From contig OY730476.1 in the NCBI GenBank assembly GCA_963422735.1, positions 2,272,001 to 2,336,000 on the forward strand: a DNA stretch of 64,000 nt. The letters run 5' to 3'. This DNA comes from Candidatus Latescibacterota bacterium. Its GTDB lineage: Bacteria; Latescibacterota; UBA2968; UBA8231. A program made the position numbers and the translations under genes. Positions 897 through 64,000 of this stretch are shown in pieces. The notes below the pieces were generated by a model. It was not told where the DNA came from. It saw only the letters and a list, made by a program, of their open reading frames with translations, and ran no database searches. The number at the start of each line of letters is the position of its first letter. Position 1 is the stretch's first letter.

Positions 897-2864
897 ATGC
901 GACATGAGTTTGCTCTTGCATTAATGCTAAGCGGTCTGTCGGCGCGCTCATGGGCGGTAGATGAGTTTCGCCTCGGCGGCACAAAGCCGTGGGCGGCGTG
1001 GACCGGGCAGCAGCAAATGATGGACGACGCTACCGACCCGTCCGCACTCCAGCCGCGCGAGCTCAAACCCGGCGAAAACTTGCTCCCCCAATTAGGGCCT
1101 TGGTATCGCTGGCGATCCCCCGGAGAATCCACCTATCGCTTAGGCGATGTCCGCATCTGGCGCGGGATCAACTACCTCCGCCCACGCGCCGAGCCACGCG
1201 ACTTCGTCGATGGCGACCCCACAACCTTTTTCTCCGCCCAAAATTTTTCCGATCCCAACGAGTTCTATACTATCGATCTGGGCGTACCGGTACCAGTAGA
1301 GCGTTTCGCCTTCTACCCGCCGGAGGGCAAAGACGCCCTTACTCAAGAGCCGTACCGTCCCAACTTCGCCTTTAAAAAATACGAACTCTCGGGTAGCCTC
1401 GACGCGGTGGGGATAGAAGCAGAAGATGGAGTCGCCTACCGTCCGCTGGACATCGTGCTGGCCAGTGTAGATTTGAACATCGAGGCCGTAGTAAACATCG
1501 ATTTCCGTCTGCAGTACTTGCGTTTTTTTCGCATCTACTTTTTCCCCGACAAGAGTGGGCGGTTCTACTTCAGATTCGCCTTAGCCGAGTTTGAAGTGTC
1601 CGGCCGAGGATTCCCACCGCGGGCTGTGTGGACGTCGCAAGTAATCGATTTAGGCCAAGAGGTCAATATCGGGCGCGTACGCTTTGGCGCGAGTAAGTGG
1701 CGGCGCGAAGGCGACCAAATCGCAGCCGCGCCCGACGCGTCAACATCCGCGCAAGTAGAAATCAAGACCGGCCTAGATACCACCCCCACCGGCTACCACG
1801 GGTACGACGACATCGGCCAACTCGTGGAAGTAACGCAAAGCGCATACGAACGGCTCAAGCAGCGCATCTGGCCCTGGGATCCCCCGGCCGTGGGCTGGCG
1901 CGGCCCCATTTTCGACGACGCGGACAACTGGAGCTTTTGGTCGCCGCCGCTGCGCCATTCCGGCGAGTTGCCCCGAGTGCCGAGCGGGCGTTACCTACAA
2001 GTACGCCTGACGCTAACGACCGAAGCGCTGTGGGATTTTACGCGCTTGGATTCGCTGGCGATTGCGTATTCTCCGCTGCTGGCCGAGCGGGTGTTAGGCG
2101 AGGTAGCCGCGGCCGGCGACCTGCAGCCCATAGGCCATATCGCCGAGGTGCCGGCCGGGCAAACGATCGAGTTGGTCTGCGACCTGCGGGCCGAGTTCGC
2201 GGCGGAGCAAGCCGGTTTTGACGCGGTGCGCCTGACCCTGCCCGGGGCGGGTGCCCTGCTCGGCTTGGAGATGGGCGATCCCCTGCAGGCGGTGGCTGCC
2301 GACAGCACAGTCGCCGAACCCGAGGGTCTAGCGATCTACCTACCCGAACCCATCCGCGACGGGGGCGCGCAAACGCTGCGCTTGCACTTGGAAACCGTCA
2401 TGTACACGGCTTCGGGTGCTGTGCAAGCCGAGGTATTCACGCGCACTGGACAGAGCCTACCGCAGCAGGTGGAAGGGGGCGACGCCAGCGACGCCTTAGG
2501 CACAGATCAACTGCACATGGTCGCCATCGGGCGAGCATTGGATGAGGTATTGGGTGAGGTAGAGGTGCTGCCGACCGCGTTCACCCCGCAGGGCGACAGC
2601 ATCAACGACCACGTAGCGATCCAGTACACCTTGTTCCGCTTGCTAGCGGCCGCCGAGGTAGAGTTGGAAATCTACGCGCTCGACGGGCGCTCCACGTGGC
2701 GGCAAGCCCTCGGTGCACGGCTCAGCGGCCGCCATCAAGCGATGTGGAACGGGCGCGACGAGAAAGAACAACTCGTCGCACCCGGGATATACGTCGTGCA
2801 GGTGCGCGCCAAAACGGACCAAGGGCAATGGGCGCAGGAACGCAGCCTCGCAGTGGTCTATTAA
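897..2864 (+). CDS. Family A exported protein (discoidin-like domain + C-terminal FlgD/CHU_C-like Ig domain)
   Basis: Signal peptide; motifs EFEVSGRGF, IKTGLD, NWSFWSPP, GFD, FTPQGDSIND, WNGRD...PGIY; ends AVVY. Confidence 0.85.
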   Translation: MRHEFALALMLSGLSARSWAVDEFRLGGTKPWAAWTGQQQMMDDATDPSALQPRELKPGENLLPQLGPWYRWRSPGESTYRLGDVRIWRGINYLRPRAEPRDFVDGDPTTFFSAQNFSDPNEFYTIDLGVPVPVERFAFYPPEGKDALTQEPYRPNFAFKKYELSGSLDAVGIEAEDGVAYRPLDIVLASVDLNIEAVVNIDFRLQYLRFFRIYFFPDKSGRFYFRFALAEFEVSGRGFPPRAVWTSQVIDLGQEVNIGRVRFGASKWRREGDQIAAAPDASTSAQVEIKTGLDTTPTGYHGYDDIGQLVEVTQSAYERLKQRIWPWDPPAVGWRGPIFDDADNWSFWSPPLRHSGELPRVPSGRYLQVRLTLTTEALWDFTRLDSLAIAYSPLLAERVLGEVAAAGDLQPIGHIAEVPAGQTIELVCDLRAEFAAEQAGFDAVRLTLPGAGALLGLEMGDPLQAVAADSTVAEPEGLAIYLPEPIRDGGAQTLRLHLETVMYTASGAVQAEVFTRTGQSLPQQVEGGDASDALGTDQLHMVAIGRALDEVLGEVEVLPTAFTPQGDSINDHVAIQYTLFRLLAAAEVELEIYALDGRSTWRQALGARLSGRHQAMWNGRDEKEQLVAPGIYVVQVRAKTDQGQWAQERSLAVVY

Positions 2865-2890
2865 AAAAGCCCCTGAAAAATCAGGGGCTT
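2863..2890 (-). terminator. Rho-independent terminator downstream of tRNA-Val (possibly bidirectional)
   Basis: Perfect stem aagcccctga-aaaa-tcaggggctt, with a T-run on the minus strand. Confidence 0.75.
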
Positions 2891-2896
2891 AGAAGA

Positions 2897-2973
2897 TGGT
2901 GGGCGATCCCAGACTCGAACTGGGGACATCCTGCTTGTAAGGCAGGCGCTCTGACCAACTGAGCTAACCGCCC
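2897..2973 (-). tRNA. tRNA-Val(TAC)
   Basis: Reverse complement GGGCGGTTAGCTCAGTTGGTCAGAGCGCCTGCCTTACAAGCAGGATGTCCCCAGTTCGAGTCTGGGATCGCCCACCA: cloverleaf, TAC anticodon, TTCGA T-loop, CCA end. Confidence 0.97.
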
Positions 2974-2981
2974 GGTCTCTA

Positions 2982-3010
2982 AGCATAGCCATTTCGGCCC
3001 TTGTCTGCAA
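2982..3010 (-). promoter_or_regulatory. Putative sigma70 promoter of tRNA-Val
   Basis: TTGCAG-17 nt-TATGCT on the minus strand, ending 8 nt upstream of the tRNA 5' end. Confidence 0.55.
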
Positions 3011-3026
3011 AGCGAGCACCGTCCAT

Positions 3027-4418
3027 TTACTGCTCATCAGCCGCGGCGATTTGTTCATACCGGGCCATGGCCGCCCCCGCTTCGGTGTGCAGGCCCTGTT
3101 CCCTGTAGGCCATAGCAATCCCGTAATACGCATCGGCATAGTCCGGGCGAATCCGCAGCGCGTGTCGGTAGCACTCCAGCGCCTGATGCGGTTGGCCATT
3201 GAGGAGCTGGGCACCCCCCAAATTGTTGTAGGCCAGCGCGTACGCCGTGTCGATGCGGACGGCGACTTCGTACATTGCAATGGCTTCTCCGGTATCTCCT
3301 AGGCGCAAATGCGCGTTGCCTAAATTGTTGTAGGCGGGCGCGTAATCCGGCCGCACGGCGAGACAGCTTCTCAGGGCGCTGATTGCCTCGGAGGGCATAT
3401 TCAGTTTGGCGTAAATCCCGGCCAAGGCGTAATGGGCCAGCGCGCCATCCGGCTCTCGCCGCAGTCGGTCTCTGAGCTGGGCTAGGCCTGCGGCATGGGG
3501 CTTCAGCTTTGCAAAGCGGCCCAAGTACTGTTGGGCTTCCTCGCGCCTTCCCTGTCTGGCATAGAGCGTACCGAGCCTGAAATACGTTTGCGCCCGCACC
3601 GGGTCCAGTGCGATGGCGCGCAGATAATGCGCCTCGGCCAACCCCTCGGTGCGCCGTCTCTCCCCGGCCAACCCCAAGCCTAAATGAGCTTGGGCCGCGC
3701 TCGGATCGAGCGCGAGGGCCGCGCCAAAAGCCGTCGCGGCCGCATCGATTTGGCCGGCTTTTAACAGGGCGTGGCCCAGCCCTATGTGCGCCCTCGGCCA
3801 GTCCGCTCGCAGCGCCACCGCCCGGTCAAACGCCGCGATAGCCTCTTGGTACTCGCCGAGGCGCTCGGCGTAGATCTGACCTAAGGCGTAAAATGCCAGA
3901 CCGTAATTAGCATCCATGCGGGTGGCCTGCCGCAGGGCTGTAACCGCCTCGTAGTAAGCCGTGAGCTTAACGTAGGCCAAACCGAGGTTATAGAACGCCC
4001 CGGCATTGTCGGGCTCGAGCGCCAGCGCCTGCCGATACAAATCGCGGCTGCGGACGTACTTCTCCTGTTCCAAGGCCAAACTGGCCAAGCTGCACAACGC
4101 ACCTACGTGCTCATCATCCAGCGAAAGCGCCCTGAGAAAATGGCTTTCGGCCTGTTCGTATAGTCCCTGTTTGCAGGAGATATTCCCCAGCCCGACCCAA
4201 GCGTCTGCAGTGAGCGGACGGATGCTTAGGGCCTGGCGGTAGTGGTGCTCGGCCCCTTGGTAGTCGCGCTCGCGCAAGAGCAAATCGGCCAGTTTCCAAT
4301 GGGCTTCGGCATCCTGCGGATGGCGGTGCAGCCACGCTTGGTAGCCGGTCTTGGTCGTGGGGAGACGCTCGCACGCGACCAGCGCGGCCAGCACTATCCC
4401 CAAGAGGACACCGTTCAT
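3027..4418 (-). CDS. Tetratricopeptide repeat lipoprotein
   Basis: Lipobox-like LVAC; many TPR motifs (AYNNLG, ALALDP). Confidence 0.9.
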   Translation of the reverse strand: MNGVLLGIVLAALVACERLPTTKTGYQAWLHRHPQDAEAHWKLADLLLRERDYQGAEHHYRQALSIRPLTADAWVGLGNISCKQGLYEQAESHFLRALSLDDEHVGALCSLASLALEQEKYVRSRDLYRQALALEPDNAGAFYNLGLAYVKLTAYYEAVTALRQATRMDANYGLAFYALGQIYAERLGEYQEAIAAFDRAVALRADWPRAHIGLGHALLKAGQIDAAATAFGAALALDPSAAQAHLGLGLAGERRRTEGLAEAHYLRAIALDPVRAQTYFRLGTLYARQGRREEAQQYLGRFAKLKPHAAGLAQLRDRLRREPDGALAHYALAGIYAKLNMPSEAISALRSCLAVRPDYAPAYNNLGNAHLRLGDTGEAIAMYEVAVRIDTAYALAYNNLGGAQLLNGQPHQALECYRHALRIRPDYADAYYGIAMAYREQGLHTEAGAAMARYEQIAAADEQ

Positions 4419-4425
4419 CGTCCTG

Positions 4426-7107
4426 TTAGCGCAGCCCAGCGAAGATGGTTACAAACGTGAGGAAATTGGTCTCATCGCCTTGTTGCAACGCCCGGCGTTG
4501 CCAGCGCACACCGATCTTGGTAGAAAGTGCGTAGCCCTGATACTCGGAGCTATTGGTGAACTGAGTGGCCAAGGTCAGGGTAGTGAAATCCTCGACAAAG
4601 GCCGGCGGCAGCGGATCTGGCTTTTGTCGTAGGTTCCTAAAGACCTCCCACTCGATCCCCGACTCCGAGACGACTTGGCCGGGTATGAGATCGTACGTAC
4701 CGATTAAGAAAAAAATCTCCGACAGCTCATTGCGTTGCAGTGCCAAGGGATCCGTCGGGACTTGACGGGCGTACTGCTGCTTCCACTTGGGCGAAATGGC
4801 GATCCCGGCGAACGGCTCGTAGAAGTACTCCGCTCTCAGTATTACACCTAAGAAACTCTCGTCGCGATTTTCCCGGGACTGATTCCTGTGCTGAAAATAA
4901 TGGTCCCATTTGACTTTACCAGACACGTTCAGCGGCCGCAGGCGATGGATGGCAAAATCTAGGTACGAAGTGTTGATCATCGCGTTCTGGGCTATCAGGC
5001 GGTCCTGCACATCCTGCAGGCTCCCTGCCGAAAAGGGAGACTGGACCCACTGAATCAGCGCGTCGGGAATATCGTCGCGGGCGAAGCGCAAAAATTCCAT
5101 AAAGCGAAACTTAAAACCGCGCAATGGTAGGTCTTCCTGCCAAGTGAAAAGCCCATAGCTCGTCTGGTTCCGCCGCGCACTACCGATCAACCACTCGCGT
5201 AGATGCCCAACCACGACCTTGGAACCGGGCTGCATCTCAGCCCCCAAGTAGAGGTTGTAGCCCCGGTGGTCGCGCTTGTAGGGATAATCGGGTTCGGTAT
5301 CGTTTTCGAGGCGGTCTATGACGGTATTATTGTTCATGTCGGTGCCGAAGAGAAATTCGGGCGGATCGACATTGTAGCGCAGAAAGGGTTCGACGTAATC
5401 GGGCTGCAAATTGTCGTTCTGGTTAAAGTCGTTAACCAAGTCGTTGTTCTCGTCGAGACCGGGGAACACCTCGACATCGGCGGCGCGGGTCGTCTGCTGC
5501 CCCGGCACAAAACCACCCCCGGTAACGCGCCGACGCCAGTCGGGAAAGCGGTCTTGGTCGTCGTTGTCGTCGACAAACTCATAGGTGAAGTTAAGCTCAT
5601 CCTCGTAGTCAATAAAACCGCGCTGGTCGGGAATTACCATGGATGTGCCGTAGTTCGGATCCATGGAGAAGATCTCGCCATAGGCGAACCAAGGATAGGT
5701 CAACCGCGAGGCGGTAACGTAAAAAGCTTCGGCGCGGTCGGACGCTAGGGCCTGCCTCTTGACGATATTCTGGTTGGGGAACTTGCGGTGGTGGCGGTTG
5801 ACGTTGAATTCGGAGCGGAGATTGAATCCGGCAAGCTCGGAGACTTCAAAAGTAAAACCCATGATTTCGTTGGCCGTAGGCAGGCCGTACTGGAAGCGGA
5901 CGACCTGCTGGTTGGAGCCATCGCTGATATTGCCGTTGCTCCGCTTGACCGGCCGGAAGACCGTCTCGCCCGTGAAATTGGTCTGCATATTGGAGGTTAC
6001 TTCTATGCGAAAATCATTGGCCACCACCAGTTCGATATCGATCTTGCGGGCTTCTTTGAAATCGCTGATCTGGTCCTTTACGCCCGGGACGAAATCGCGT
6101 TCGACATCGTAACTGAGCCTCAGCACGTCGCCGCCGTTGGCCTCGAGCAAGCCCTGACGCCGCGTCCCTCCGTCAATCGAAGGTTTTATTTCTGGGTGCT
6201 CGACCTCGTCGATGAATATCCGTGCGCGGAACAGCAGCGCACCTCCGGTGTTGTCTTCGGGCGAATCGTCGCTGAGGCGGACGACGATGCGGCGGACGTT
6301 TTCCGCATTCAGGCGCCCTCCTAAGACACCCTTGAGGGAATTCTCCTCGACGCTCAAGCGGCTGTTCCCGTGGTTGGCATTGACGTACGTCAAGCCCAGC
6401 GTGGCGAAATCGCCGACTTGGGCGACTCCTCGCAATCCATACAAATTGGTGAAGACCGTCTCTCTGGCTTCGGAGATCTCGCTGTCGAGACGCTGGACAG
6501 CCGGATTGTCGATGCGCGAGGTAATGAAGGTCAAGGCGTATTTGTCGGACTGCATATCCCACTGAATACCGTCGAAGAGAGGTTTCGAGAAGGTCAGTGG
6601 CGTAAGCGTGGTCCGTAGCTGTTCGCCGACGGTCAACGCGGTGTAGAATTGCCCTTTGGAAGCCGAGGATATCAGGACTCGGTTGAACCAACTATTGAAT
6701 CGGGGATTTTTGAAAATGCTGCTGCCGAAATCGAGCGGGTGTTCCTGGCGCCAGTCGTAGATGCGCCAACCACGAGTGATATAGTTGCCGTACAGGTCGT
6801 AATAGCGATCGCCTTCCAAGAAGAGATTGACGTAGCGCTGGTAGTTGTCCCGGGCGTAGTTAGTGTACTCGTAGGTCTTCCATCCATAGAGATAAAGCAG
6901 CGTCTGGGGCACGTACCATTTCCGCATAACCGGATTTAGTGACTCAAAATCGACGGGCGTTCCCGTCGCTCTATACGGATTGAAGAACCCGCTCTGCAAA
7001 TCGGCCTTGAGTTTTAGTGGCAAGAGGGCGAGAAAGGCAAAGGACCAAATGGCTTTATTCATCGCGCTAGTTTCCCATCTCGATAGCGGCTTTGCATCGT
7101 GCATCAA
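4426..7107 (-). CDS. Family B large exported / putative outer-membrane protein with Asp-rich Ca-binding block
   Basis: Signal peptide (alternative start ATG 7062); RTTLTPLTF, DDSPED, YGLPT, VDDNDDQDRFPD, FPGLDENND, PDYPYKRDHRG; beta-strand C-terminus IFAGLR. Confidence 0.85.
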   Translation of the reverse strand: MMHDAKPLSRWETSAMNKAIWSFAFLALLPLKLKADLQSGFFNPYRATGTPVDFESLNPVMRKWYVPQTLLYLYGWKTYEYTNYARDNYQRYVNLFLEGDRYYDLYGNYITRGWRIYDWRQEHPLDFGSSIFKNPRFNSWFNRVLISSASKGQFYTALTVGEQLRTTLTPLTFSKPLFDGIQWDMQSDKYALTFITSRIDNPAVQRLDSEISEARETVFTNLYGLRGVAQVGDFATLGLTYVNANHGNSRLSVEENSLKGVLGGRLNAENVRRIVVRLSDDSPEDNTGGALLFRARIFIDEVEHPEIKPSIDGGTRRQGLLEANGGDVLRLSYDVERDFVPGVKDQISDFKEARKIDIELVVANDFRIEVTSNMQTNFTGETVFRPVKRSNGNISDGSNQQVVRFQYGLPTANEIMGFTFEVSELAGFNLRSEFNVNRHHRKFPNQNIVKRQALASDRAEAFYVTASRLTYPWFAYGEIFSMDPNYGTSMVIPDQRGFIDYEDELNFTYEFVDDNDDQDRFPDWRRRVTGGGFVPGQQTTRAADVEVFPGLDENNDLVNDFNQNDNLQPDYVEPFLRYNVDPPEFLFGTDMNNNTVIDRLENDTEPDYPYKRDHRGYNLYLGAEMQPGSKVVVGHLREWLIGSARRNQTSYGLFTWQEDLPLRGFKFRFMEFLRFARDDIPDALIQWVQSPFSAGSLQDVQDRLIAQNAMINTSYLDFAIHRLRPLNVSGKVKWDHYFQHRNQSRENRDESFLGVILRAEYFYEPFAGIAISPKWKQQYARQVPTDPLALQRNELSEIFFLIGTYDLIPGQVVSESGIEWEVFRNLRQKPDPLPPAFVEDFTTLTLATQFTNSSEYQGYALSTKIGVRWQRRALQQGDETNFLTFVTIFAGLR

Positions 7108-17198: not shown

Positions 17199-17268
17199 CC
17201 TACAAAATGCAAAAGCGGGAAGTAGAGATATGTACACCTCTCCTCCCCGCTGCTGAAATGGGAAAATT

Positions 17269-20099: not shown

Positions 20100-20106
20100 A
20101 GAGCAA

Positions 20107-22192: not shown

Positions 22193-22200
22193 GATTGTTT

Positions 22201-44835: not shown

Positions 44836-44859
44836 GGGGTTAACTCCTCCCAGCAGGAG

Positions 44860-47306: not shown

Positions 47307-47314
47307 TACCTCTC

Positions 47315-49790: not shown

Positions 49791-50230
49791 TAATCCTAAA
49801 TACAACAGGTTTAGATCGGTGCGACCGAACTGCCAATGGATCCTATCCAAGACCAACACCTGTTGTTGGCTGGGTCGAACCAGCTTCGATACTACGATCA
49901 ACTGGGTAAACACCACCGGGGATACCTCGCTGCTGAAAAAACGCTGTACGCGTCGATACTGACTTTCAATTTGGGTCCTGCCCGACAGGCTACACGCCAT
50001 TTTCTTCATACTTGATGGAGCGAACGTTAGATCAGCGCACACCAAGCGGCTGACTAGGTCAATACGGTGGTGGGTGAGGGGTATCTTCCCTTATTGTGAG
50101 GGCCTTTTAATTTATTGTACTTATAAGCATGGTGCTGCTCTTGTATGTAGGGTTTATTTGCAATCTTGGCGATTACAAATAAACCTAAATCGGGGCTGCA
50201 CCACAACTTAGATTACTGTCGTGTACTTAG
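49791..50230 (-). mobile_element. IS4-family remnant (left end + N-terminal transposase fragment)
   Basis: SQYRRVQRFF, LVLDR..W.FG...LNLL.LG; terminal ctgtcgtgtacttag; truncated by IS982. Confidence 0.75.
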
Positions 50231-50279: not shown

Positions 50280-50383
50280 AGCGCCCTCATCGAGAGGATG
50301 CAGATGCATTATTGCGGGCGATATTGTCGCGATTAAAGTCCGCGTCCGTCTGTATTTTACCCGAAAAAACGAGGCAGTCCAAC

Positions 50384-52513: not shown

Positions 52514-52569
52514 CGGATGTGTTTGGTACAACAGCTATTGGTGCCGCAACTGAGAGATTTGTCGAGCCT

Positions 52570-55224: not shown

Positions 55225-55225
55225 T

Positions 55226-58018
55226 ATGCGCGGCGCGAACCGGCATCTAGCCTTCCTAGCCTTGGCCCTGGCGTACGGCGCGGCAGTGGATGCCCAGTTG
55301 ATCATCCGCAACACCGAGCCGTACCGCAACTATGCGTACGAGGGATACCGGCCGTATGAGAGTCTGGTATTCGGCCGCGATCGCACACCTCAGTTCGACA
55401 ATATGGGGCAGTTCGTGATGAACGGGGTCAATGTCTTTGAACTGCAGGAATTCCGCACCTTGCAGACCACGCCCGGAAGCATCATCGGCAAGGAGCGGCA
55501 GTACGGTGACTTTCTCAATCGCCTGGTCATTGCCAACGACTCGTACAAAGGCGTGGACACCCGCCTGATTGTCGGCGATCGCATCCGCACCAAATTCACT
55601 CCGCTGACCCTCGACTTGGCGGCTATGAACGGGCTCCGGGTGGACAGCAACCTCAAGGACGCCTCGCTGGTGCTGGCTGTATCGCGCGTCGATCGACCCA
55701 TTTTCGAGGCCATCAGAAATGCCGACTTCGTGGTCCACGGCCGCGAGGGTTCGCAGTTCAGGCCGTCGTGGAGTACCTATTTGCTGGGCGCCGACCTGCG
55801 CACCAAGCGGCCGGGCCTAGACCTGGGCGTGAGCTGGGTCAACCAGTACCGCACCGACAGTTTTAAGACTCTTGGCGAGAACAGCTTCAAAGGGACCCTG
55901 CCCACCACCGGGGCTCCCCCCCTATGGCTGGTGTTGCGCGTGGCCGACCAAGACCCCAACGACGCCATCGGCGTACGGGTCCGCAGGACGGCCGTCGCGC
56001 TCAACGGCCGCCGCTTGATGCACGTGCCCGGGCCCTACAACAAACTCGACACGGGCGCGTTGCGGCTCACGGTCACCGAACACCCGGACCGCACCATCAT
56101 TCCGCCGATTTTCCGCGATTCAAGCAACGACCTAGCCATCAACTTTCCACACGTCGAGCCGACCCCGCAGGGAGTTTATGAAACTCGGGGCGAGGGGTCG
56201 CTGCTGTTCTGGTTCGAGGTACCTTCCTCCTTTGTCGACGGGCTCGATACCCTCATCGTCAACAAAGCCGATATAGAGATCGATGTGGCCGGGGATTATC
56301 TGCTCGAATTGTCGGAGATATTCGATGGGGCCTCTTTCAACCCAGCAACATATTTCTACACCGCCGGGCAGGCGCGGGGCAAGCCCGACAACCTCGACAA
56401 TTTTCGCCGAGTGCGAGTGCGCTACGGCCGGGAGACCGGGCGCACCCTAGCTAGCGTACATGCCAATATAGACATCAAGGGGTACTCGCTGCGGACTGAG
56501 TACGTGCGCAATTTCTCGTACCGCGCCTATCCGGCCCTGCTGGGCACCTTGGGCCGGTACCAGCTCGATCAGAGCCAGGCTTGGTTCGCCGTACTGCGGC
56601 GCGATCTCGGGCGCTTCAGTTTGGGCGGCGAAGCCTTTAACATAGACGCAGAGTACACCACCCGCCTGTCCGTGCAGGATGATTCGTACCAGACCTATTT
56701 CCAGTTGATCAACAGCCCCTTCCAGTTCCCAACCAATTTCCAAGAGCCCAGACTGCCGGATTTCCTCGGCCCCAACCGGGCCGACGCCACCCGCACCCTC
56801 GAATTTGATACAGTGGACGACAACGACGACAAAGACCCCTTCCCCGACACCTTTTTCCTGCGTAAAACCACCAGTCTGGAGGGCGGACATTTCATCGAGG
56901 ATCCCGACGGCATCTTCCCTGGACTCGACGCCGATTTGAATGGCCGGCCCGATATCAACGAGAACAACAACCGCATCCCAGACTACTACGAAGCCTTCCT
57001 GCTCTACGAGGTCAATCCCGACGCGTACGACTACGGCGAAGATACCAATAACAACGGCGTCATCGACGATCGCGAAGACGATTTGAAGCCCGATTACCCG
57101 TACGACCAGGACCGACGAGGGCTGCACGGCTTTGGCAGCTACCGGCCGCGTTCGGGCATGAAAGTGACCTTGGGCTACCACCGGACTTGGGCGCCCTTTG
57201 ACGGCGACCAAGCCGAAGTGTACTACGGCCGCTACGAGTACGAACGCCGCCTGCCCTTCCTAGTTGAGATCTACGCCGTCGAGCGGCTCAAGAGGGTGCG
57301 GGACGGGATTGCGGACGAAGTCTTTGGCCTGGGGCGCGATCCCATATACTTCACCCCGGATATAATCCCCTTGCGCCTGCCCACCGAGGAGGAATTGCGC
57401 CATCCGCTGGGCACATCGCGGCTGCTGGTCGATCCACTGCTGATGCGCGATAGTTGGGTCAATACCTTCTATATACGCACCCTCTTCATCCGCGTACCCA
57501 ATCTCAATGTCGAGGTGAGCCTGAAGTCGGAAAATAACTTCCAGCACCGTACGCCCCTCCAGCCGGACAACCGCATCGCCGATCTGGCCACGGTCTTCAA
57601 GGCCGATTATCTGTGGATGCCGTGGAAGCAGTTGCGGGTGATGCTGCAGTTCAAGTGGTTGCGCCAGCGCCTCGGCGACGAGGGCCAGGTACTGCCGATT
57701 GAAGAGGACTTCGTCTATCCCATCTTGCGGATGGAGTACCCGATTTCGAACCGCACCGCCGTGAAGGTGGGTGCCCAGGGGTTGCCTTTCCTCAAGAGCC
57801 TGTACCGCAACAACGCGGCCCCGGGAGTGGATTTCGACGGGGAGGACTACGTGGCCTTGGTGACCAACAAATCCTCGTACACGGGCTACCAGATCAATGT
57901 CGAAGTGGGTTATCAGAAGAGCACACGCAAGTTCAAGGACCGGTCGCGCCACGACCAGGATATCGACTTTTCGCGCGTTTTCCTGCGCATGATCGCCGGC
58001 CTGAGCCCCCTGTTTTGA
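55226..58018 (+). CDS. Family B large exported / putative outer-membrane protein
   Basis: Signal peptide; VGDRIRTKFTPLTL, VDDNDDKDPFPD, FPGLDADLNG, PDYPYDQDRRG; ends MIAGLSPLF. Confidence 0.85.
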   Translation: MRGANRHLAFLALALAYGAAVDAQLIIRNTEPYRNYAYEGYRPYESLVFGRDRTPQFDNMGQFVMNGVNVFELQEFRTLQTTPGSIIGKERQYGDFLNRLVIANDSYKGVDTRLIVGDRIRTKFTPLTLDLAAMNGLRVDSNLKDASLVLAVSRVDRPIFEAIRNADFVVHGREGSQFRPSWSTYLLGADLRTKRPGLDLGVSWVNQYRTDSFKTLGENSFKGTLPTTGAPPLWLVLRVADQDPNDAIGVRVRRTAVALNGRRLMHVPGPYNKLDTGALRLTVTEHPDRTIIPPIFRDSSNDLAINFPHVEPTPQGVYETRGEGSLLFWFEVPSSFVDGLDTLIVNKADIEIDVAGDYLLELSEIFDGASFNPATYFYTAGQARGKPDNLDNFRRVRVRYGRETGRTLASVHANIDIKGYSLRTEYVRNFSYRAYPALLGTLGRYQLDQSQAWFAVLRRDLGRFSLGGEAFNIDAEYTTRLSVQDDSYQTYFQLINSPFQFPTNFQEPRLPDFLGPNRADATRTLEFDTVDDNDDKDPFPDTFFLRKTTSLEGGHFIEDPDGIFPGLDADLNGRPDINENNNRIPDYYEAFLLYEVNPDAYDYGEDTNNNGVIDDREDDLKPDYPYDQDRRGLHGFGSYRPRSGMKVTLGYHRTWAPFDGDQAEVYYGRYEYERRLPFLVEIYAVERLKRVRDGIADEVFGLGRDPIYFTPDIIPLRLPTEEELRHPLGTSRLLVDPLLMRDSWVNTFYIRTLFIRVPNLNVEVSLKSENNFQHRTPLQPDNRIADLATVFKADYLWMPWKQLRVMLQFKWLRQRLGDEGQVLPIEEDFVYPILRMEYPISNRTAVKVGAQGLPFLKSLYRNNAAPGVDFDGEDYVALVTNKSSYTGYQINVEVGYQKSTRKFKDRSRHDQDIDFSRVFLRMIAGLSPLF

Positions 58019-58019
58019 T

Positions 58020-61000
58020 ATGAAACGGCAAGTGATCATCGACATTGACCAATTGGCCAAGCTCGCCTGTGCGTGGCTGGGGGCGACCCTGCTGCTGGCC
58101 GGGGGTTTGGGGGCCCAGTCGGCAGCAGACACGCCGGAGCAGCCCACCTTGGGGCCGCAGCGGCTCATGCCCAACCAGAGCTTTGTGGGGCGCTACAGCG
58201 AGACGCTCTACCAGAATTACGGCTTTGCCGAATACCCCCGGCTACCGCCCTTTACCAATACGCTGCGGCCCTTTTACAGCGATTTAGGGGATTTCCTCAT
58301 CTACGGCTCGAATTCGGTCAACTGGCGGGAGCGCCGGGGATTGGGTGCCCAGCGCGGATTCTCCTCCATAGGCGAACGGGGGAGCCACGGTCAGGCCGGG
58401 GTCTCCTTTGAACGGCTGTTCAACAATGTCATCGTGGGTACGGACGGCACCGACGCTTGGCAGGCCAAGGTCATCTGGGCCAATGAGATCCGCACTAAGT
58501 TTACGCCCCTGACCTTCAAGATGGCCAATCTCGACGGTTTGCGATTCGACATGGGCACCGAGCGGGACAGTTTTTCGGCCCTGATTTCGAGAAACCGCCA
58601 CACGGGCGGCGGCGGGGTCATCCCCGGTGCTCTCATCGGCGGGGCGCACTACGAGCGCCAAGTGGGTTTTCTCCACTTTGGCGGCACTTTTGTCAACGCC
58701 CACCAATTCGAGCCGCTGATGTCGAGCAAAGACCTGTCCTTCAAAGGGGTTGCTGGGGCGGCCCAGAACGCCCCAGCTCTGCTGGCCATCCGCATTGCCG
58801 ACGACGCTCCCGGCCTAGGGGCGACTGGGGCGGTGCTGCACCGAGTGGACGTATATGTCAACGGCGAGTTGCTGCCGGCACTCGAGCCCTTTATCGTCCG
58901 CTTGGATACGCGTGGGGACGAGCGCCAGCCCTACAGCCAAGATCTGCTCCGTTCAGGCGAGCGCAAGCCCCTTCCCCGCACCGGCAACGACTACCAGTCG
59001 ATCAACCGGGGCGCCATCGCTAGCACGTACGACCCGTACATTAATTACGCGGCCTTTGACGCGGATGTCTATTACCGGGGCTACGAGTTCCCCTTCTGGA
59101 TCGGCCATCTCTACTACCGCGACTTCAAGTTGTTCGGCCCGGATTACGTGATCAACGCCGACCGCAAGGGCGAAGACCCCATCACCGTGCACGAGGAGTT
59201 CGCCCACGAAGTGGCCGAGCGCAGCGCGGAAAACCCCGACGGACAGTTTCTCGGTCTGTACACCCGGGCCGATCTGCCGCAAGCCTTTGACGGCCGGGAG
59301 TACGGTATTCTCTACGTCGATCTGGAGCCCTTTGGCGAGTGGATCGAGTCGGTTGACGTCGACCTGTTCATCTCGGGCGATTACCACGTCGAACTGTCGG
59401 AGATCGATATCGGGGGTATACAGCCCAACGAGCCCGAGTCGAATTACCGCGACAAGTACCGCTATGCCTCCTTCTTCCGCACGGTGGCGCGGGCCGACGG
59501 TACGCCATCGCCGCAGGAGCCGGTCGAGCGGGTGCGGGTCAAGGCCGGTACGCCCACAGGGGTGCGCCTGTACAGCGCCAATGTATACGGCGTGCTCAAA
59601 GGTTTTGAGATCAACGCCGAATTCGCCCGCAGCAACAGCTATTCCCAATACGTGAGCGGTCCTCCCGGGGTGCGGGTGCCCGGGGACGCGCTCAGCATCA
59701 ACGCCCTCGACCGCGAGGCGCGTCCCGGCAAGCGCGGCACTATCAGCGACAACGCCTTCTACGTCACGGTGAAGCGCGACTTTCCTCTGTGGGGCTTCGG
59801 CGGCGAATACTTTTCCATGGGGCCGCACTACAATACTGAGCTGCGCTCTTTTATCGGCCGCGACGAAGGTTGTTGTACGGGGAGTCTGATCACCCAAAAC
59901 GACGCCCTCATCCACCGGTTGGTCGAGGACAACGACGACAACGATCGCTTCCCCGATAGCTGGTACACCAACCACGCCAGTCCGGGCATGTTCTTCTTGG
60001 GCCAGTCCGACATTGACGGCATTTTCCCGGGCCTAGACGAGGACAACGACGGCTATCCAGACCAGAACAAGAACATCAACGGCACGCCGGACGATATCGA
60101 GCCCTTCCTCATGTACGATGTCGACGCCCAGGTCTACGACTACGACCTCGACATGAACCACAACGACTTCCTCGACGCGCGAGAGAACGACACCGACCCG
60201 GATTATCCGTACGATCCCGACTTGCGCGGGCTGCACGTGTACGGCCAGTTCAACCCAGTGCCCGGTCTGACTTGGTCAGTGGGCTTGATGAATGCCGAAC
60301 AGAATGCCGGCGGGGGGCCCAGCGACGTACTCTACACCCGCTTGACCTACTGGCGTACAGTACCGGCGGTGGGCCAGTTTTTTGCCGTTGCCTCGCTGGA
60401 GGAAGTGGAGGATGGCGTGGAGGATCCGCTGAGCGTGTACAGCGACCGGGTGCTGACCACGGCCGAACTATTCGAACTCGATTTCCCGGGCTTCCAGCGC
60501 AATATCCAGCTCGCCCCCTTTGTCGAAGAGGAGCGCGATGACCCACTGCTCTTCAAGGACAGCAGATACTTGCGCTTTTTCACTGACGCCCGTTGGAATG
60601 CGATCCCCCGGCTCAATATGCACAATAAAGTCAAGTACGAGATTAATGCCCAGCGCGAGGGCGAACTCTTCGATGGCACCTTCCAGGAGAGCGAGCGTCT
60701 GAGCCGCTGGGCCATGATGCACAAGGTTGACTACACTTGGCCGCTGGCCGATCAGTTGACCCTTTTCGCCGGTTTCAAATTCCGCTACCTCAAGGAGTGG
60801 CGACGCAGCCTGGAGTTGCCCACCTTGCACGAGCGCAATCTGATCCCGCTGACCAAGCTGGAGTACCGCCTGACCAGCCGAACCCGATTCCAGCTAGGCG
60901 TCCAGGGACTGGGGTCGCTTCTCCCCTATAGCGTGAACGATCTGGCCGACGCACGCCGGGACTTCGATCAGAGCGATATTGTGTTTATGCTGACCAACGA

Positions 61001-61148
61001 TTCAAAGTACTTCGGCTATCTGATCTCGACCAATATGGGTCTCCGCCGCCGCGTCAAGGAGTTCGACGATCTGGATGTGGCTGGCGAGGCCAATGTGGAA
61101 TTTATCGCCGCCTATATAAATGTGATTCTGGGATTTGAACACGAGTGA
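58020..61148 (+). CDS. Family B large exported / putative outer-membrane protein
   Basis: Signal peptide; EIRTKFTPLTF, DDAPG, VEDNDDNDRFPD, FPGLDEDNDG, PDYPYDPDLRG; ends VILGFEHE. Confidence 0.85.
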   Translation: MKRQVIIDIDQLAKLACAWLGATLLLAGGLGAQSAADTPEQPTLGPQRLMPNQSFVGRYSETLYQNYGFAEYPRLPPFTNTLRPFYSDLGDFLIYGSNSVNWRERRGLGAQRGFSSIGERGSHGQAGVSFERLFNNVIVGTDGTDAWQAKVIWANEIRTKFTPLTFKMANLDGLRFDMGTERDSFSALISRNRHTGGGGVIPGALIGGAHYERQVGFLHFGGTFVNAHQFEPLMSSKDLSFKGVAGAAQNAPALLAIRIADDAPGLGATGAVLHRVDVYVNGELLPALEPFIVRLDTRGDERQPYSQDLLRSGERKPLPRTGNDYQSINRGAIASTYDPYINYAAFDADVYYRGYEFPFWIGHLYYRDFKLFGPDYVINADRKGEDPITVHEEFAHEVAERSAENPDGQFLGLYTRADLPQAFDGREYGILYVDLEPFGEWIESVDVDLFISGDYHVELSEIDIGGIQPNEPESNYRDKYRYASFFRTVARADGTPSPQEPVERVRVKAGTPTGVRLYSANVYGVLKGFEINAEFARSNSYSQYVSGPPGVRVPGDALSINALDREARPGKRGTISDNAFYVTVKRDFPLWGFGGEYFSMGPHYNTELRSFIGRDEGCCTGSLITQNDALIHRLVEDNDDNDRFPDSWYTNHASPGMFFLGQSDIDGIFPGLDEDNDGYPDQNKNINGTPDDIEPFLMYDVDAQVYDYDLDMNHNDFLDARENDTDPDYPYDPDLRGLHVYGQFNPVPGLTWSVGLMNAEQNAGGGPSDVLYTRLTYWRTVPAVGQFFAVASLEEVEDGVEDPLSVYSDRVLTTAELFELDFPGFQRNIQLAPFVEEERDDPLLFKDSRYLRFFTDARWNAIPRLNMHNKVKYEINAQREGELFDGTFQESERLSRWAMMHKVDYTWPLADQLTLFAGFKFRYLKEWRRSLELPTLHERNLIPLTKLEYRLTSRTRFQLGVQGLGSLLPYSVNDLADARRDFDQSDIVFMLTNDSKYFGYLISTNMGLRRRVKEFDDLDVAGEANVEFIAAYINVILGFEHE

Positions 61149-61182
61149 TGAGCTTTTACTTTTCCACAGGAGGCGTCGGCAC

Positions 61183-63999
61183 ATGAATCTCGTCTTTGTC
61201 CTGGCTCTGGTCACGGTCCTCGGGACGCAGTTTGCCGCGCGCACCCCGAACCGGGACGATTTGGTGGCTTCCTTCCGCGACGCCCAGGCATTTTACGCCG
61301 AGGGCGCGTACGATCAGGCCATTGTCCGCTATGAGGAAGTCCTGCAGGTGCGCAGCCGCTTGCTCGATACACAGAATATCTCGGTGAGCGTGGGATCGGA
61401 GAGTTTTCCCGTGCTGGAAGCCGCCAATTACCAGATTGGCAATGCTTACAGCAAGCTCTTCACCGATTTTTCCCGCTTTGCCGGGGAGGCGCGCGATCCG
61501 GAGCGCCGAGGGGGCTTTCAGGCGCAGGCCGACAGCGCCTTTGCCCGCTCGGTGAGGGCCTTCCGCCAGGTCAGCGAAACGGCCGCCAACCAGGTGTTGC
61601 GCGTCCAAGCCTTTGGCCGGCTGGTCGATCTGTACTTTGAAGCCGGGCGCTACCTCGAGGTGATTGCGGCCGCCGACGCCATGATCGCGGCCTATCCGGG
61701 CGATCCGCGAGCCGTGGGCGGTTATTATAGCCGGGGCTGGGCCTTTTACGAAATGCAGAACTACACCCGGGCTATTGCCGCCTTCAAAGAGTTGCTCGAA
61801 CTCTATCCCACGGGTTACCAAGCCGACCGCAGCCTCTTTCAGATAGGTGAATCCTATCAGGAACAGGGCGAGTACTTACAGGCCATTGAACACTACCGCC
61901 GCCTAGTCAAAGGCCAGCGCATCGAGGAACTCACCGAAGAGCAACTCAATCAGATGCGGCGGGAGAAACTGGCCGGTCTGGTCGACGAAACCGCGCTGGA
62001 GCTGGCGGCCAAGGCCGAGATTCGCGTGGGCAATTGTTTCACCAATCTGGGGCGGTACGACGAGGGGCTGGCGGCCTATCGGCGGGTGATCGCCCTCTTT
62101 AGCACGGAGCGCCGTCTGGTCGAAGAGGCCTATTTGCGCATGGCCGATCTCTACCAAGAGCAGGGCGATCTGGCGATGGCCCTGCAGACGTACCGCGAGG
62201 CCATTGACCAATCGACCGATCGCACCCTGAGGGCTCGCATTCAATATGCCTTGGCCGAGCGCATCTTCGCCCGCGGCCAATATGAGCAGGCGATCCAGGA
62301 ATACCGCATCTATCTCCGGGGCTATGGCGATATTGCCGGTGGCGCGGGTTTTTCGCTCGAACGGGTGCGCTATCGCATCGGCAGCGCGTACCAGCAAATG
62401 GCCCAGGCGCGGCTGGGCGAGGACGACCGAGTCGGTGCCAGCGACTTGCTCAATCGGGCCATCGCCCAATACGATACCGTGCTGAGCAATGAGGGCTCAC
62501 CCTATGGCTTGGATGCTCGTTTCAACCGCGCCTTGGCGCACCAGTCGCAGGGCGGGCAGGAGGCTCTCGACCGGGCCCAGAGTACTTTTGAAGCCATTGT
62601 CGGGGAAGGGCACGACCGGGGCTATGTGCAGCGCGCCTTGGTGCAATTGGGCGAACTGTACTACGACCGCGGCGAATACGAGGCGTCGGCACAGCGGGCG
62701 CGGCAATTGTTGGACCGCTTCCCGGAAAGCGATTACGACGCCGACGCCTATATGCGCTTGGCCTTGGCTCGCCAAGCTTTGGGCGATCCAGACGGAGCCA
62801 TCCGGGCTTTTTTGGCCGTTGACCCAGAGTCGCCCCACTTTGCCCGAGCGCGGCTGGGAAGCGGCCACACCCTGGTGACCCAAGGCCAGTTAACCGAGGC
62901 CATTCCAGTACTAACAGCGGGTCTGGAGCGGGCCGACGATGGCCAGCGAGCTAGTTTCCACTATCTGATAGGACAGGCGCATATAGGCGAGGGGGCGTAC
63001 CAGCGGTCCATCGACCACTTTTCGCAGGCCCTCGAGCACATCCGGGGCGGCAGCAGACTGGAAGAAGCGTTGCGCTTCAGCCGAGGGAATACGGCCTTTG
63101 TGGTGGAAAACTACGCCCTGGCCGAGGAGGACTTCAGATGGATCATTGACCATGTCGAAGACCCAGAGAAAGTGCGCTCGGCGGAAAACGCTCTGTCCCG
63201 GTCCTACCTGAAGCAGGACCGGGGCGGCGAGGCCATACAGGTCCTCGACGATATGGTGCCTAATGCCGAGAGCCCGGAGGAGCAGGCCGAAATCTTGGGC
63301 CGCATGATGGATCTGTACTACGAGCGAGATGACTACGGGCAGACCGTCCGCTTTGCCCAGCGAGTACTCAGTTTGTCCTTTGCCGACGAATTGGGGCCCG
63401 GTCAGACCATCCTACTCAGGGAGCGTACGTACTTTGTTTTGGGGGATGCCCTGTCGCGTTTGGGCCGAGGAAATGAAGCGGTCGAGGTATTTGGCCGAGC
63501 CCTAGACCAGTATCCCGAATCGGAATTCGCCACGGATATGCGCTTGGCGATGGGCATCCACTACTTCGACTGGGACCAGCTCGACCGGGCCAAGGAGGTC
63601 TTTGGCGCCCTGCGCCAGGCTGACCTCGAGCCTAGTCAGGACCTACTGGTGCGTTTCTACTTGGCCAACGCGCACTACAGCATGCGCGAATTCGAGGATG
63701 CCCAGCGCGAGTTCCTCGGGCTGTTGAGCGATTACCCTCGGGTGCGCGAATTGCCGGATATGCTCTTTGGCGCGGCCGAAAGTTATTATCAGCTCGGGGA
63801 GTTCGCCGCCGCGCTCGGTCTGTACGACCGCATCCTCGCCGAGTTCCCCGCCGAGACAGCGGCGGACAACTCCCAGTACAACAAGGCTTGGTGCCTCATC
63901 GAGTTAAAGCGCGATGGAGAGGCCATGGAGGCTATGGCCGAATTGCTGCGCCGCTATCCCGAGAGCGAATTCGCCGCCTCGGCGCAGTTTACGCTGGGC
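61183..63999 (+). CDS. Very large exported TPR protein, 3'-partial (at least 939 aa; absent from the ORF track)
   Basis: RBS AGGAGG + ATG 61183 (MNLVFVLALVTVLG...). Frame spot-checked open to the window end, with BamD/CpoB-type TPRs (YPGDP, LYPTG..AD, FPES, YPES). Confidence 0.85.
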   Translation, partial: MNLVFVLALVTVLGTQFAARTPNRDDLVASFRDAQAFYAEGAYDQAIVRYEEVLQVRSRLLDTQNISVSVGSESFPVLEAANYQIGNAYSKLFTDFSRFAGEARDPERRGGFQAQADSAFARSVRAFRQVSETAANQVLRVQAFGRLVDLYFEAGRYLEVIAAADAMIAAYPGDPRAVGGYYSRGWAFYEMQNYTRAIAAFKELLELYPTGYQADRSLFQIGESYQEQGEYLQAIEHYRRLVKGQRIEELTEEQLNQMRREKLAGLVDETALELAAKAEIRVGNCFTNLGRYDEGLAAYRRVIALFSTERRLVEEAYLRMADLYQEQGDLAMALQTYREAIDQSTDRTLRARIQYALAERIFARGQYEQAIQEYRIYLRGYGDIAGGAGFSLERVRYRIGSAYQQMAQARLGEDDRVGASDLLNRAIAQYDTVLSNEGSPYGLDARFNRALAHQSQGGQEALDRAQSTFEAIVGEGHDRGYVQRALVQLGELYYDRGEYEASAQRARQLLDRFPESDYDADAYMRLALARQALGDPDGAIRAFLAVDPESPHFARARLGSGHTLVTQGQLTEAIPVLTAGLERADDGQRASFHYLIGQAHIGEGAYQRSIDHFSQALEHIRGGSRLEEALRFSRGNTAFVVENYALAEEDFRWIIDHVEDPEKVRSAENALSRSYLKQDRGGEAIQVLDDMVPNAESPEEQAEILGRMMDLYYERDDYGQTVRFAQRVLSLSFADELGPGQTILLRERTYFVLGDALSRLGRGNEAVEVFGRALDQYPESEFATDMRLAMGIHYFDWDQLDRAKEVFGALRQADLEPSQDLLVRFYLANAHYSMREFEDAQREFLGLLSDYPRVRELPDMLFGAAESYYQLGEFAAALGLYDRILAEFPAETAADNSQYNKAWCLIELKRDGEAMEAMAELLRRYPESEFAASAQFTLG

Positions 64000-64000
64000 G

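Follow-up and report, generated by a model that had tools for sequence, protein, structure and literature searches.

The DNA analysed here, which we call the window, is a 64,000-nt stretch of the genome of Candidatus Latescibacterota bacterium (assembly GCA_963422735.1, contig OY730476.1, positions 2,272,001–2,336,000 of the forward strand), a genome that consists of one contig of 4,953,052 bp. A gene map drawn from a listing of open reading frames (ORFs) and from Pfam and NCBIfam scans places in it seven genes of a family of putative surface proteins that we call A, five genes of a family of predicted outer-membrane barrels that we call B, three genes for tetratricopeptide repeat (TPR) proteins and one ExbB-ExbD-ExbD set (Table 1). 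Operon 1, on the minus strand, reads A-A-B-TPR. Operon 2, on the same strand, consists of a B gene followed by a gene that joins a weak GT-C-like PMT_2 match to TPRs, and an A gene on the plus strand converges on it. Operon 3, on the plus strand, reads A-B-B-B and ends in a giant TPR gene that runs past the window, where it is followed by two small ORFs, a gene for a 411-aa DUF4159 protein and a gene of a family of lipoproteins that we call X. All three operons had been proposed in an original prediction made from the sequence, and the ORF listing, Pfam and the alignments place them at the positions it gave. The A genes that it listed are likewise A genes, but its list lacked those at 897–2864, 14551–16467 and 33360–35480.

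The A proteins of the window are paralogues, 25–35% identical, that align along their whole length. An AlphaFold 2 model of the 670-aa copy in operon 1, built from 40 sequences (predicted local distance difference test (pLDDT) 84.9, predicted template modelling score (pTM) 0.78), is all-beta. Residues 60–253, approximately, adopt a CBM32/discoidin fold (4a42_B, Z 13.0, root-mean-square deviation (rmsd) 2.5, 123 aligned residues, together with many other CBM32 entries) and the middle part matches Ig-like domains of adhesins. The C-terminal domain (CTD), residues 563–670, has the beta-sandwich fold of type IX secretion system (T9SS) sorting domains, matching the CTDs of PorU (6za2_B, Z 12.5, rmsd 2.4, 97 aligned) and PorZ (5m11_A, Z 10.3, rmsd 2.6, 92 aligned). 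Because the CTDs of PorU and PorZ are, we presume, not type-B, these matches speak for a fold common to T9SS rather than for a subtype. CHU_C (PF13585), the type-B CTD model with a cut-off of 27 bits, is passed by four of the seven proteins (38.6, 37.8, 31.5 and 29.2 bits), the other three scoring 25.1, 24.2 and 22.6. Since this model is passed in four cases only and a second one, TIGR04131, in none, we call the domain type-B-like rather than a proven member of that class. Genome-wide, the motif [TS]P[ND]GDG.N[DE] is found in 58 of 82 A genes and in 0 of 36 other CTD proteins, and the A proteins end in VAY-like residues whereas the other 36 end mostly in LLR or LLK; these differences in motif and terminal residues indicate that two T9SS-like CTD classes coexist in the genome. 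Pfam and NCBIfam scans detected no catalytic domain in A. The model and these scans are best read as a non-catalytic surface binding protein with CBM32-like and Ig-like domains, and the T9SS-fold CTD together with the CBM32-like domain supports the earlier suggestion that A is a secreted cargo or adhesin-like protein.

The five B proteins are also paralogues, alignable over their full length and 26–43% identical to the first of them. None matches a Pfam family (E <= 0.01) or an NCBIfam model, and a sequence search against solved structures returned two chance-level matches only. All 58 homologues found in a collection of 5.8 billion proteins, mostly from Latescibacterota, are unnamed or labelled hypothetical, and a B profile run against 1.84 billion cluster representatives recovered 1052 of them at E <= 0.001, of which 353 reach E <= 1e-30. 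An AlphaFold 2 model of the first B protein of operon 3 (35 sequences, pLDDT 78.7, pTM 0.75) consists of long antiparallel strands; 24 strands of at least eight residues, counted by eye from DSSP outside the inserts, point to a barrel of about 24–26 strands. Foldseek and an aligner independent of it matched this model to outer-membrane barrels only, of every class and with no family prominent: MtrB, Deinococcus SlpA (7zgx_A, Z 14.7, rmsd 6.1, 374 aligned), porins, TonB-dependent transporters (TBDTs), LptD, ushers and Omp85 barrels. The prediction that B is an outer-membrane barrel thus agrees with both the model and its structural matches. Two family names were considered and set aside: DUF6029, a TBDT-like family that is the nearest named cluster in a protein atlas (0.89) and serves as a lead only, B having no Pfam match, and PorP/SprF (PF11751), which none of the five proteins matches.

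The barrel is interrupted twice, by a beta-rich insert of about 200 residues (about 226–425) and by an Asp-rich stretch (about 504–627). By our reading of the model, a count by eye that assumes the last strand to end in the periplasm, the long elements would lie outside the cell and the tight turns in the periplasm. The Asp-rich stretch is the most conserved segment among the 34 B paralogues of the genome (mean top-residue fraction 0.59), with DNDDxD in all 34, and this surface loop probably binds calcium. The second most conserved segment (0.53) is an N-terminal extension, residues 39–83, in which Y53, N55, Y56, Y61, Y64, Y73, D74, G77 and G83 each recur in at least 30 of the 34 copies. In the model, pLDDT is below 50 at residues 1–14 and 30–69, and the barrel begins with a strand close to residue 84. 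A conserved, unstructured periplasmic extension would offer a natural docking site. The model has no plug-sized domain ahead of the barrel, and Pfam gives no Plug or TonB_dep_Rec signal in B, although the same TonB_dep_Rec model finds the 13 true TBDTs of the genome; TBDTs match the B model at Z 9–11, no better than porins, ushers, LptD, MtrB or SlpA. No cysteine is conserved in B. Eleven of the 34 paralogues have none at all, and C-terminal twin cysteines of the SprF type are absent, so the disulfide mechanism that joins SprF to GldK does not apply to B. The three B proteins of operon 3 are only 26–29% identical to one another, which suggests three old, distinct subunits.

A and B are strongly amplified. 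Profile searches of the genome's ORFs found 34 full-length B genes and 78 A genes at 70% model coverage or more (82 in a non-overlapping set at 60%), all of them in 24 loci with 26 B runs; together A and B genes occupy 278,412 bp, 5.6% of the genome. An A gene lies immediately upstream of 18 of the 26 B runs on the same strand, and within three genes of 22. The zone within 15 kb of a B gene makes up 14.8% of the genome and, counted genome-wide, holds 16 of 17 copies of lipoprotein X, 16 of 18 copies of a further family, Y, 18 of 24 SurA-like double peptidyl-prolyl isomerases (PPIases), 18 of 39 FG-GAP/ASPIC proteins and 14 of 36 DUF6785 membrane proteins. Sixty unlabelled neighbour genes scanned in 18 loci include seven ATP-binding cassette (ABC) permease components, two binding proteins, a sodium:solute symporter and small-molecule catabolic enzymes. 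These neighbours lend modest support to nutrient uptake, not to a polysaccharide substrate.

The same arrangement recurs in other genomes. A scan of one genome per species found at least 71 loci, mostly in metagenome-assembled genomes (MAGs) of Latescibacterota; some of the loci listed carry labels of Gemmatimonadota, Kryptoniota, Handelsmanbacteria or other phyla, and MAG labels may err. The loci listed contain 82 B runs; a TPR gene is next downstream in 46 of the 80 that have a neighbour, and an A gene lies within three genes upstream in 49 of 75. Recurrent orders among them are a(ctd)-A-B-B-B-TPR-DUF4159, A-B-TPR-ExbB-ExbD-ExbD-X and ExbD-ExbD-ExbB...A-A-B-B-TPR-DUF4159-X. A "core" locus, a(ctd)-A-B-B-B-giantTPR-(two small ORFs)-DUF4159, is seen in loci L006–L016, L023 and L031 and in this genome at C1:2439311-2450614.

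Across the phylum, a sample of 121 genomes has B in 72 and A in 71, one incomplete genome having B only; the relatives are not independent, so these figures describe a family-wise pattern rather than a statistic. Both families are present in all 40 genomes of family f1 and absent from f2 (0/29 each), f3 (0/13) and f4 (0/2). The co-occurrence and co-localisation expected of A and B are thus found: they occur in the same families and are syntenic in this and other genomes. The 44 genomes of f2, f3 and f4, families of the same class with SprA and without A or B, are in many cases 95–100% complete and form a natural contrast group for what the A/B module adds. SprA was detected in 113 of the 121 genomes (28 of 29 in f2, all 13 in f3); this near-universal presence makes the translocon a common feature of the phylum, to which some of its members add A/B. 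We found no paper that joins Latescibacter with "type IX secretion" or T9SS, and a Latescibacteria genome paper from 2015 speaks, in its accessible text, of porins and ordinary TonB import alone. To judge by these searches, neither the amplification of A and B nor its link with T9SS cargo seems to have been reported in the searchable literature.

Between operons 2 and 3 of the window, an ExbB/TolQ gene (PF01618) and two ExbD/TolR genes (PF02472) are adjacent on one strand (44006–45606), each scoring well beyond its Pfam cut-off, and encode a motor of the ExbB/ExbD kind. This motor operon diverges from operon 3, as the original prediction had it; it is also co-directional with operon 2 and lies 645 bp upstream of its B gene. 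The proposed tie between ExbB-ExbD-ExbD and B-TPR is borne out by synteny. Elsewhere in the genome a single-strand operon reads B-X-218-A-286-B-TPR(1090 aa)-ExbB-ExbD-ExbD-X-PPIase, and orders of the B-TPR-ExbB-ExbD-ExbD-X type also occur in other genomes, including a MAG labelled Kryptoniota. The genome has five ExbB genes, three beside TPR, DUF4159 or X genes, a fourth that belongs to a classical set, some 1.3 kb from a TonB_C gene, and a fifth that is a short fragment. The 411-aa DUF4159 protein just past the window has a transmembrane (TM) helix, a Pro/Lys/Arg-rich linker and a DUF4159 head, and its TM helix, read by eye, contains no His. Near a B locus (C1:355243-364933), two other DUF4159 genes (446 and 447 aa) are separated by 8 kb and identical over their first 110 residues; both copies have S-x3-H (S-L-A-L-H) in the TM helix. 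In the literature searched, DUF4159 occurs only in a Pfam database paper and DUF6785 in none.

Part of the motor operon has decayed. DUF4159-X pairs flank operon 3 in inverted orientation, at 46567–48016 and, past the window, at 1990–3439 of locus L005, and are 71% identical over 1444 bp. In the window, the DUF4159 gene is an inverted duplicate of the 3' part of the 411-aa copy, truncated precisely where its DUF4159 domain begins and lacking the 5' anchor part; its X gene is frameshifted, and a DUF6785 gene lies broken beside a split transposase gene. In this last stretch (48020–50045), the transposase region has only one other long match in the genome, 77% identical, and close relatives (loci L006 and L007) carry other genes upstream of that A-B-B-B-TPR operon. 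The 306-aa product of the motor operon had been called FlgT-like; no FlgT Pfam family matches it, and a protein atlas gives CsgG/LpoB/FlgT_C as a lead only. The giant TPR protein scores 186 bits against YbgF/CpoB (cut-off 90), a score made up of five stretches of a 119-position TPR model within the 955 aa of the protein that lie in the window, and we therefore take it to reflect repeat content, not orthology. Four of the eight TPR partners encoded directly 3' of B have, by eye, a hydrophobic, membrane-like N-terminus.

The window contains no T9SS core gene, but the genome encodes a T9SS translocon and its outer-membrane partners: SprA (SprA_N 84.3 bits, in a 2140-aa frame), PorU (632 bits, cut-off 420) and, adjoining PorU, a PorV-like gene (152 bits, below the cut-off of 250). 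It also has 13 ordinary TBDTs and four TonB_C proteins, so the statement that SprA and TonB are missing is true of the window and not of the genome. The T9SS genes make A most simply a T9SS cargo and the module a T9SS accessory. The wider claim of an undescribed secretion system is accordingly not upheld, in view of SprA, PorU and the PorV-like gene and of a class of TPR-motor-transducer cassettes already sketched in the accessible text of PMC12204202. No GldK above the cut-off was found in the genome, where generic FGE-sulfatase similarity reaches at most 65 bits (cut-off 350).

From domain content, folds, paralogy, copy numbers, synteny, co-occurrence and the T9SS core genes we infer an arrangement that we favour tentatively, with somewhat less than even confidence: B holds T9SS-delivered A proteins on the cell surface, with the TPR protein as periplasmic partner and a Ton/Tol-like motor coupled to the complex. 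We envision that A, once exported by Sec, would pass through the T9SS translocon by means of its type-B-like CTD and end on the cell surface. There the product of the gene directly after it, B, would serve as the membrane partner that holds it, the role that PorP/SprF plays for type-B cargo in Bacteroidota. The TPR protein would act as the periplasmic partner of B in a PorE-like or CpoB-like role. ExbB-ExbD-ExbD, the TonB-like arm with its DUF4159 head and lipoprotein X would couple the proton-motive force to the B barrels, few motors serving many barrels, and the motor might act on B through the N-terminal extension. A motor link would not be foreign to such modules, since SprF-type barrels of Bacteroidota are coupled to a proton-motor track. 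The likely purpose is the capture, and perhaps the uptake, of glycans or other nutrients. The system is real, strongly non-random and largely unannotated, and we rate it as a type-B cargo module of the T9SS whose barrel is non-homologous and much larger, joined genetically to a Ton/Tol-like motor from a class noticed only recently.

Several observations weigh against this arrangement. One concerns the pairing of A with B. PorP/SprF proteins are about one third the size of B. Type-B CTDs of Flavobacterium pair specifically with their shuttles, according to the accessible text of PMC12618676. Among 18 adjacent A-B pairs, by Mantel test, B distances do not follow the distances of A CTDs (r 0.07, p 0.23) but do follow those of A bodies (r 0.61, p 0.0002), CTD and body distances themselves correlating at r 0.45. 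The cognate CTD-to-B pairing that had been proposed thus finds no support, and the pattern argues against a specific CTD-B lock of the Flavobacterium kind; it fits either a contact of the A body with B or co-duplication with exchange of CTDs. The best TIGR04131 score of any A protein is 31 bits, against a cut-off of 35. B genes often come in conserved runs of three, which looks more like a machine than an anchor, and these runs, with a size beyond the need of an anchor, suggest a hetero-oligomeric machine. Just two of the five ExbB genes have a B gene within 15 kb. The rule that a TPR gene follows every B run is true of the window (three of three), but as a general rule it fails, both here, where a TPR gene lies directly 3' of 8 of the 26 runs (TPR genes being 65 of 4046 overall), and in the other genomes' loci listed (46 of 80). 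None of the 60 neighbour genes scanned is a glycoside hydrolase, which leaves a glycan substrate without backing from enzymes. The absences on which the comparison with Bacteroidota leans are themselves limited: PF11751 finds nothing in the genome but also nothing in any of 14 control genomes, and searches for GldL and GldM were silent in the genome and in the controls alike.

The motor and the neighbouring genes also admit an importer. B would then be an energised import channel, a plug-less barrel other than a TBDT that ExbBD and DUF4159 open by acting on the N-terminal extension, A would resemble the surface glycan-binding proteins of the SusE/F type, and the loci would be the counterpart of polysaccharide utilisation loci (PULs); we consider this doubtful. 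Few motors for many barrels is a pattern that resembles the Ton system, and SusC resembles B, with its 34 copies, in size, copy number and operon position. The conserved N-terminal residues of B fall in the very stretch that AlphaFold 2 leaves unstructured, B co-diversifies with the A body and not with its CTD, and the CBM fold of A also matches the SusE-like protein 7m1a (Z 10.4). The enrichment of DUF6785 membrane proteins near B (14 of 36 in 14.8% of the genome) points the same way, as do the nearby ABC permeases, binding proteins, sodium:solute symporter and small-molecule catabolic enzymes, although in a compact genome such neighbours may be coincidental. Glycoside hydrolases, at 0 of 60 scanned neighbours, are missing, and B has neither a Plug or TonB_dep_Rec signal nor an N-terminal plug domain in its model, while the genome keeps 13 ordinary TBDTs and four TonB_C proteins elsewhere. 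A bolder claim, to which we give a similarly low probability, is that the B barrels are the sought outer-membrane targets of non-TonB motor-driven transducers and form a third class of proton-energised outer-membrane devices for PUL-like nutrient capture, a plug-less barrel of about 24–26 strands being gated or pulled through its N-terminal extension by the ExbBD-DUF4159 arm. Such a device would stand beside TBDTs and Tol-Pal, and its surface binding proteins would be delivered by T9SS instead of being lipoproteins.

A further alternative is gliding or propulsion, in which A adhesins on B barrels are moved or tensioned by the proton motor through the giant TPR scaffold, in the manner of SprB-SprF on the GldKN track or of Myxococcus Agl-Glt. 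Agl-Glt shares the layout of one ExbB and two ExbD and has giant TPR proteins, and the a(ctd)-A-B-B-B-giantTPR-DUF4159 locus is kept across many genomes like a machine. According to the accessible texts, SprF-type barrels of Bacteroidota are mechanically coupled to a motor-driven track (PMC12635249) and Williams-Jones et al. name gliding as a possible role of related transducers (PMC12204202). We nonetheless hold gliding to be improbable: an SprF-type disulfide link is excluded, with no conserved cysteine in B (11 of 34 copies lacking any), no GldK-type protein above the cut-off was found in the genome, and a set of 82 different short A proteins bearing CBM32 domains is more in keeping with binding than with a motility adhesin. 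Export of a polymer is more improbable still. On that account B and the TPR protein would be the porin and scaffold of an exopolysaccharide or glycoconjugate exporter, as in AlgE-AlgK, PgaA, BcsC and PelBC, and A would be lectins that hold the polymer. The membrane-like N-termini of four of eight TPR partners would suit it, as would the PMT_2 match of the copy in operon 2 (27.0 bits, cut-off 26.1), the sole copy scanned for GT-C. The B model matches PgaA (4y25, Z 12.2) and PelBC (9h80, Z 11.1) but no better than it does other barrels, and porins of the AlgE, PgaA, BcsC and PelBC type are much smaller than B. The loci scanned contain no synthase or polymerase genes, and the motor and the T9SS CTD of A would be left unexplained.

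The operons and related genes of the window are listed in Table 1. Between operon 1 and the Y-X-A group a gene for a 518-aa protein with a PcfJ-like domain (41.6 bits) stands alone on the plus strand at 11720–13276. The stretch at 19040–31482, between A/B operons, encodes an ABC importer of the Opp/Dpp type (SBP_bac_5 at 22270–24255, two permeases at 20107–22192) and a separate 183-aa SBP_bac_5 fragment (19040–19591), as well as short-chain dehydrogenase/reductase, class-III aminotransferase, amidotransferase and creatininase genes. Metatranscriptome contigs from four libraries of two studies cover operon 3 (50.3–64.0 kb, 50305–64000) at about 96% identity; they derive from a related strain, are contigs and not reads, may reflect DNA carry-over, and so demonstrate neither transcription nor starts nor the structure of the operon. 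The contigs of three of the four runs end upstream at 50305–50364, near the A start, and the upstream context of the related strain may differ; the stretches left uncovered (about 44.7–48.0 kb and 49.3–50.0 kb) are uninformative.

Table 1. Genes of the A/B operons, the motor operon and related features in the window
Coordinates	Strand	Feature	Evidence
897–2864	+	A paralogue, discoidin/CBM32-like, with C-terminal FlgD_ig/CHU_C	FlgD_ig 28.8, CHU_C 24.2, F5_F8_type_C 20.3 bits; aligned with other A proteins
3027–4418	-	TPR protein, 463 aa, probable lipoprotein, last in operon 1	TPR_11 198.9 bits among many TPR families; N-terminus LAALVAC resembles a lipobox (read by eye)
4426–7107	-	B paralogue, 893 aa (operon 1); large beta-barrel of the outer membrane, family unnamed	No Pfam/NCBIfam match; aligned with the other four B
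7120–9453	-	A paralogue, 777 aa (operon 1)	CHU_C 38.6, F5_F8_type_C_2 34 bits; TIGR04131 31 bits (cut-off 35)
9469–11481	-	A paralogue, 670 aa, modelled copy (operon 1)	CHU_C 31.5 bits; AlphaFold 2 model
14551–16467	-	A-family gene without adjacent B	FlgD_ig 39.9, CHU_C 25.1 bits; A by profile search
16452–17351	-	X family member	phmmer match to X query; no Pfam family
17269–18177	-	Y-like protein, 302 aa	18 relatives in genome; no Pfam family
32341–33243	-	Y protein, 300 aa, downstream of A gene	A Y paralogue has a weak CBM9_1 match, 23.2 bits
33360–35480	-	A paralogue, 706 aa	CHU_C 37.8 bits
36030–38114	+	A paralogue, 694 aa, convergent on operon 2	CHU_C 29.2, FlgD_ig 28.3 bits
38319–40532	-	Membrane protein, 737 aa, GT-C-like N-terminal half and C-terminal TPR (operon 2)	PMT_2 27.0 bits (cut-off 26.1), residues 65–213; TPR residues 435–715
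40634–43360	-	B paralogue, 908 aa (operon 2)	No family match; 43% identical to operon 1 B
44006–44422	-	ExbD/TolR paralogue 2	PF02472 104.5 bits
44419–44835	-	ExbD/TolR paralogue 1	PF02472 97.2 bits
44860–45606	-	ExbB/TolQ proton channel	PF01618 100 bits; best NCBIfam TolQ 81.8 bits, below cut-off
45638–46558	-	306-aa protein, CsgG/LpoB/FlgT_C-like as a lead only	No Pfam/NCBIfam match; atlas feature score 0.94
46567–47363	-	X lipoprotein gene, split by frameshift into 47115–47363 and 46567–47118	Each ORF aligns with one half of full-length copies (about 250 aa)
47315–48016	-	DUF4159 gene without membrane anchor and linker, 233 aa	PF13709 91.1 bits
48020–49367	-	DUF6785 membrane-protein gene in three ORFs	PF20581 matches on two fragments, different profile parts
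49119–49777	+	Transposase gene (DDE_Tnp_1_3) split in two ORFs	PF13612 100 and 61.1 bits
50312–52513	+	A paralogue, 733 aa, first in operon 3	F5_F8_type_C_2 25.9, CHU_C 22.6 bits; C-terminus carries TPNGDGINDE
52519–55224	+	B paralogue, 901 aa, modelled copy (operon 3)	AlphaFold 2 pLDDT 78.7, pTM 0.75; generic outer-membrane barrel matches only
55217–58018	+	B paralogue, 933 aa (operon 3)	Alignment of five B
58020–61148	+	B paralogue, 1042 aa (operon 3)	Alignment of five B
61135–64000	+	Giant TPR protein running past the window end, 1098 aa in genome (operon 3)	NCBIfam YbgF/CpoB 186, BamD 125.5 bits; PorW/SprE 106 bits (cut-off 250)

A and B make up a large unannotated gene set that is probably central to the feeding or attachment of widespread uncultured bacteria, and parts of it recall several known systems. 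With Tol-Pal the system shares an ExbB that scores best against TolQ, a giant TPR protein above the YbgF/CpoB cut-off (186 bits, cut-off 90), an arm in the membrane that resembles TolA, and small lipoproteins. Unlike Tol-Pal, it has two ExbD/TolR genes, its loci contain neither a TolA domain III nor a Pal/OmpA-like domain, and its link to 34 barrels has no Tol-Pal counterpart. SusC/SusD utilisomes likewise comprise many paralogous loci that pair a barrel of about 900–1000 aa with surface binding proteins, share few proton motors and have inner-membrane transporters and catabolic genes nearby. B differs from SusC in lacking a Plug or TonB_dep_Rec domain, the A binding proteins are T9SS cargo and not lipoproteins, and neither a SusD-like gene nor a glycoside hydrolase turned up in the scan of 60 neighbours.

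Of the worked examples, the trio of PorP/SprF, PorE and type-B cargo comes closest, represented in the accessible texts by a P. gingivalis complex, PorE-PorP-PG1035, and an F. johnsoniae pair, SprF-SprB (PMC9143113), by the cargo-shuttle-PorE-like operon Fjoh_3952-3951-3950 (PMC12618676) and by the linkage of SprF to GldK through C-terminal twin cysteines (PMC12635249). Here too a barrel gene, and often a TPR gene, comes after a cargo gene whose CTD is type-B-like, the T9SS core genes lie elsewhere in the genome, and two CTD classes coexist. The differences are that B lacks a PF11751 signal and is far larger, at about 900 aa and 24–26 strands, that the A CTDs do not co-vary with B, that amplification has brought the module to 34 B and about 80 A genes, that it is linked to ExbBD and DUF4159 genes, and that GldK does not rise above its cut-off, GldL and GldM being unmatched in searches whose controls were silent for both. 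With SprA near-universal in the phylum and no GldK above the cut-off, the module bears on how T9SS cargo may be held outside Bacteroidota.

The motor side has its nearest relative in the cassettes of TPR-tolQ-tolR-tolR with non-TonB "vWA" transducers described by Williams-Jones et al. (2025, Mol Biol Evol 42:msaf138; PMC12204202), which in the accessible text of that paper have no known function or outer-membrane partner. As in those cassettes, a TPR gene, ExbB/TolQ and two ExbD/TolR genes are found here with a transducer in which a TM helix and a Pro-rich linker precede a globular head of neither the TonB nor the TolA type; this form is seen in the 411-aa copy past the window and in the synteny, the window copy being truncated and without an anchor. 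The head is DUF4159, a name with 0 occurrences in PMC12204202, and of the SHLS/His TM motif of their transducers the copy near operon 3 has no His, while other copies have S-x3-H. The cassette stands here in operons with a specific barrel family and T9SS cargo, an association not reported in the accessible text of PMC12204202, and the orphan TPR-TolQ-TolR-TolR and non-TonB transducer cassette thereby gains concrete candidate partners: one barrel family and the T9SS cargo encoded beside it.

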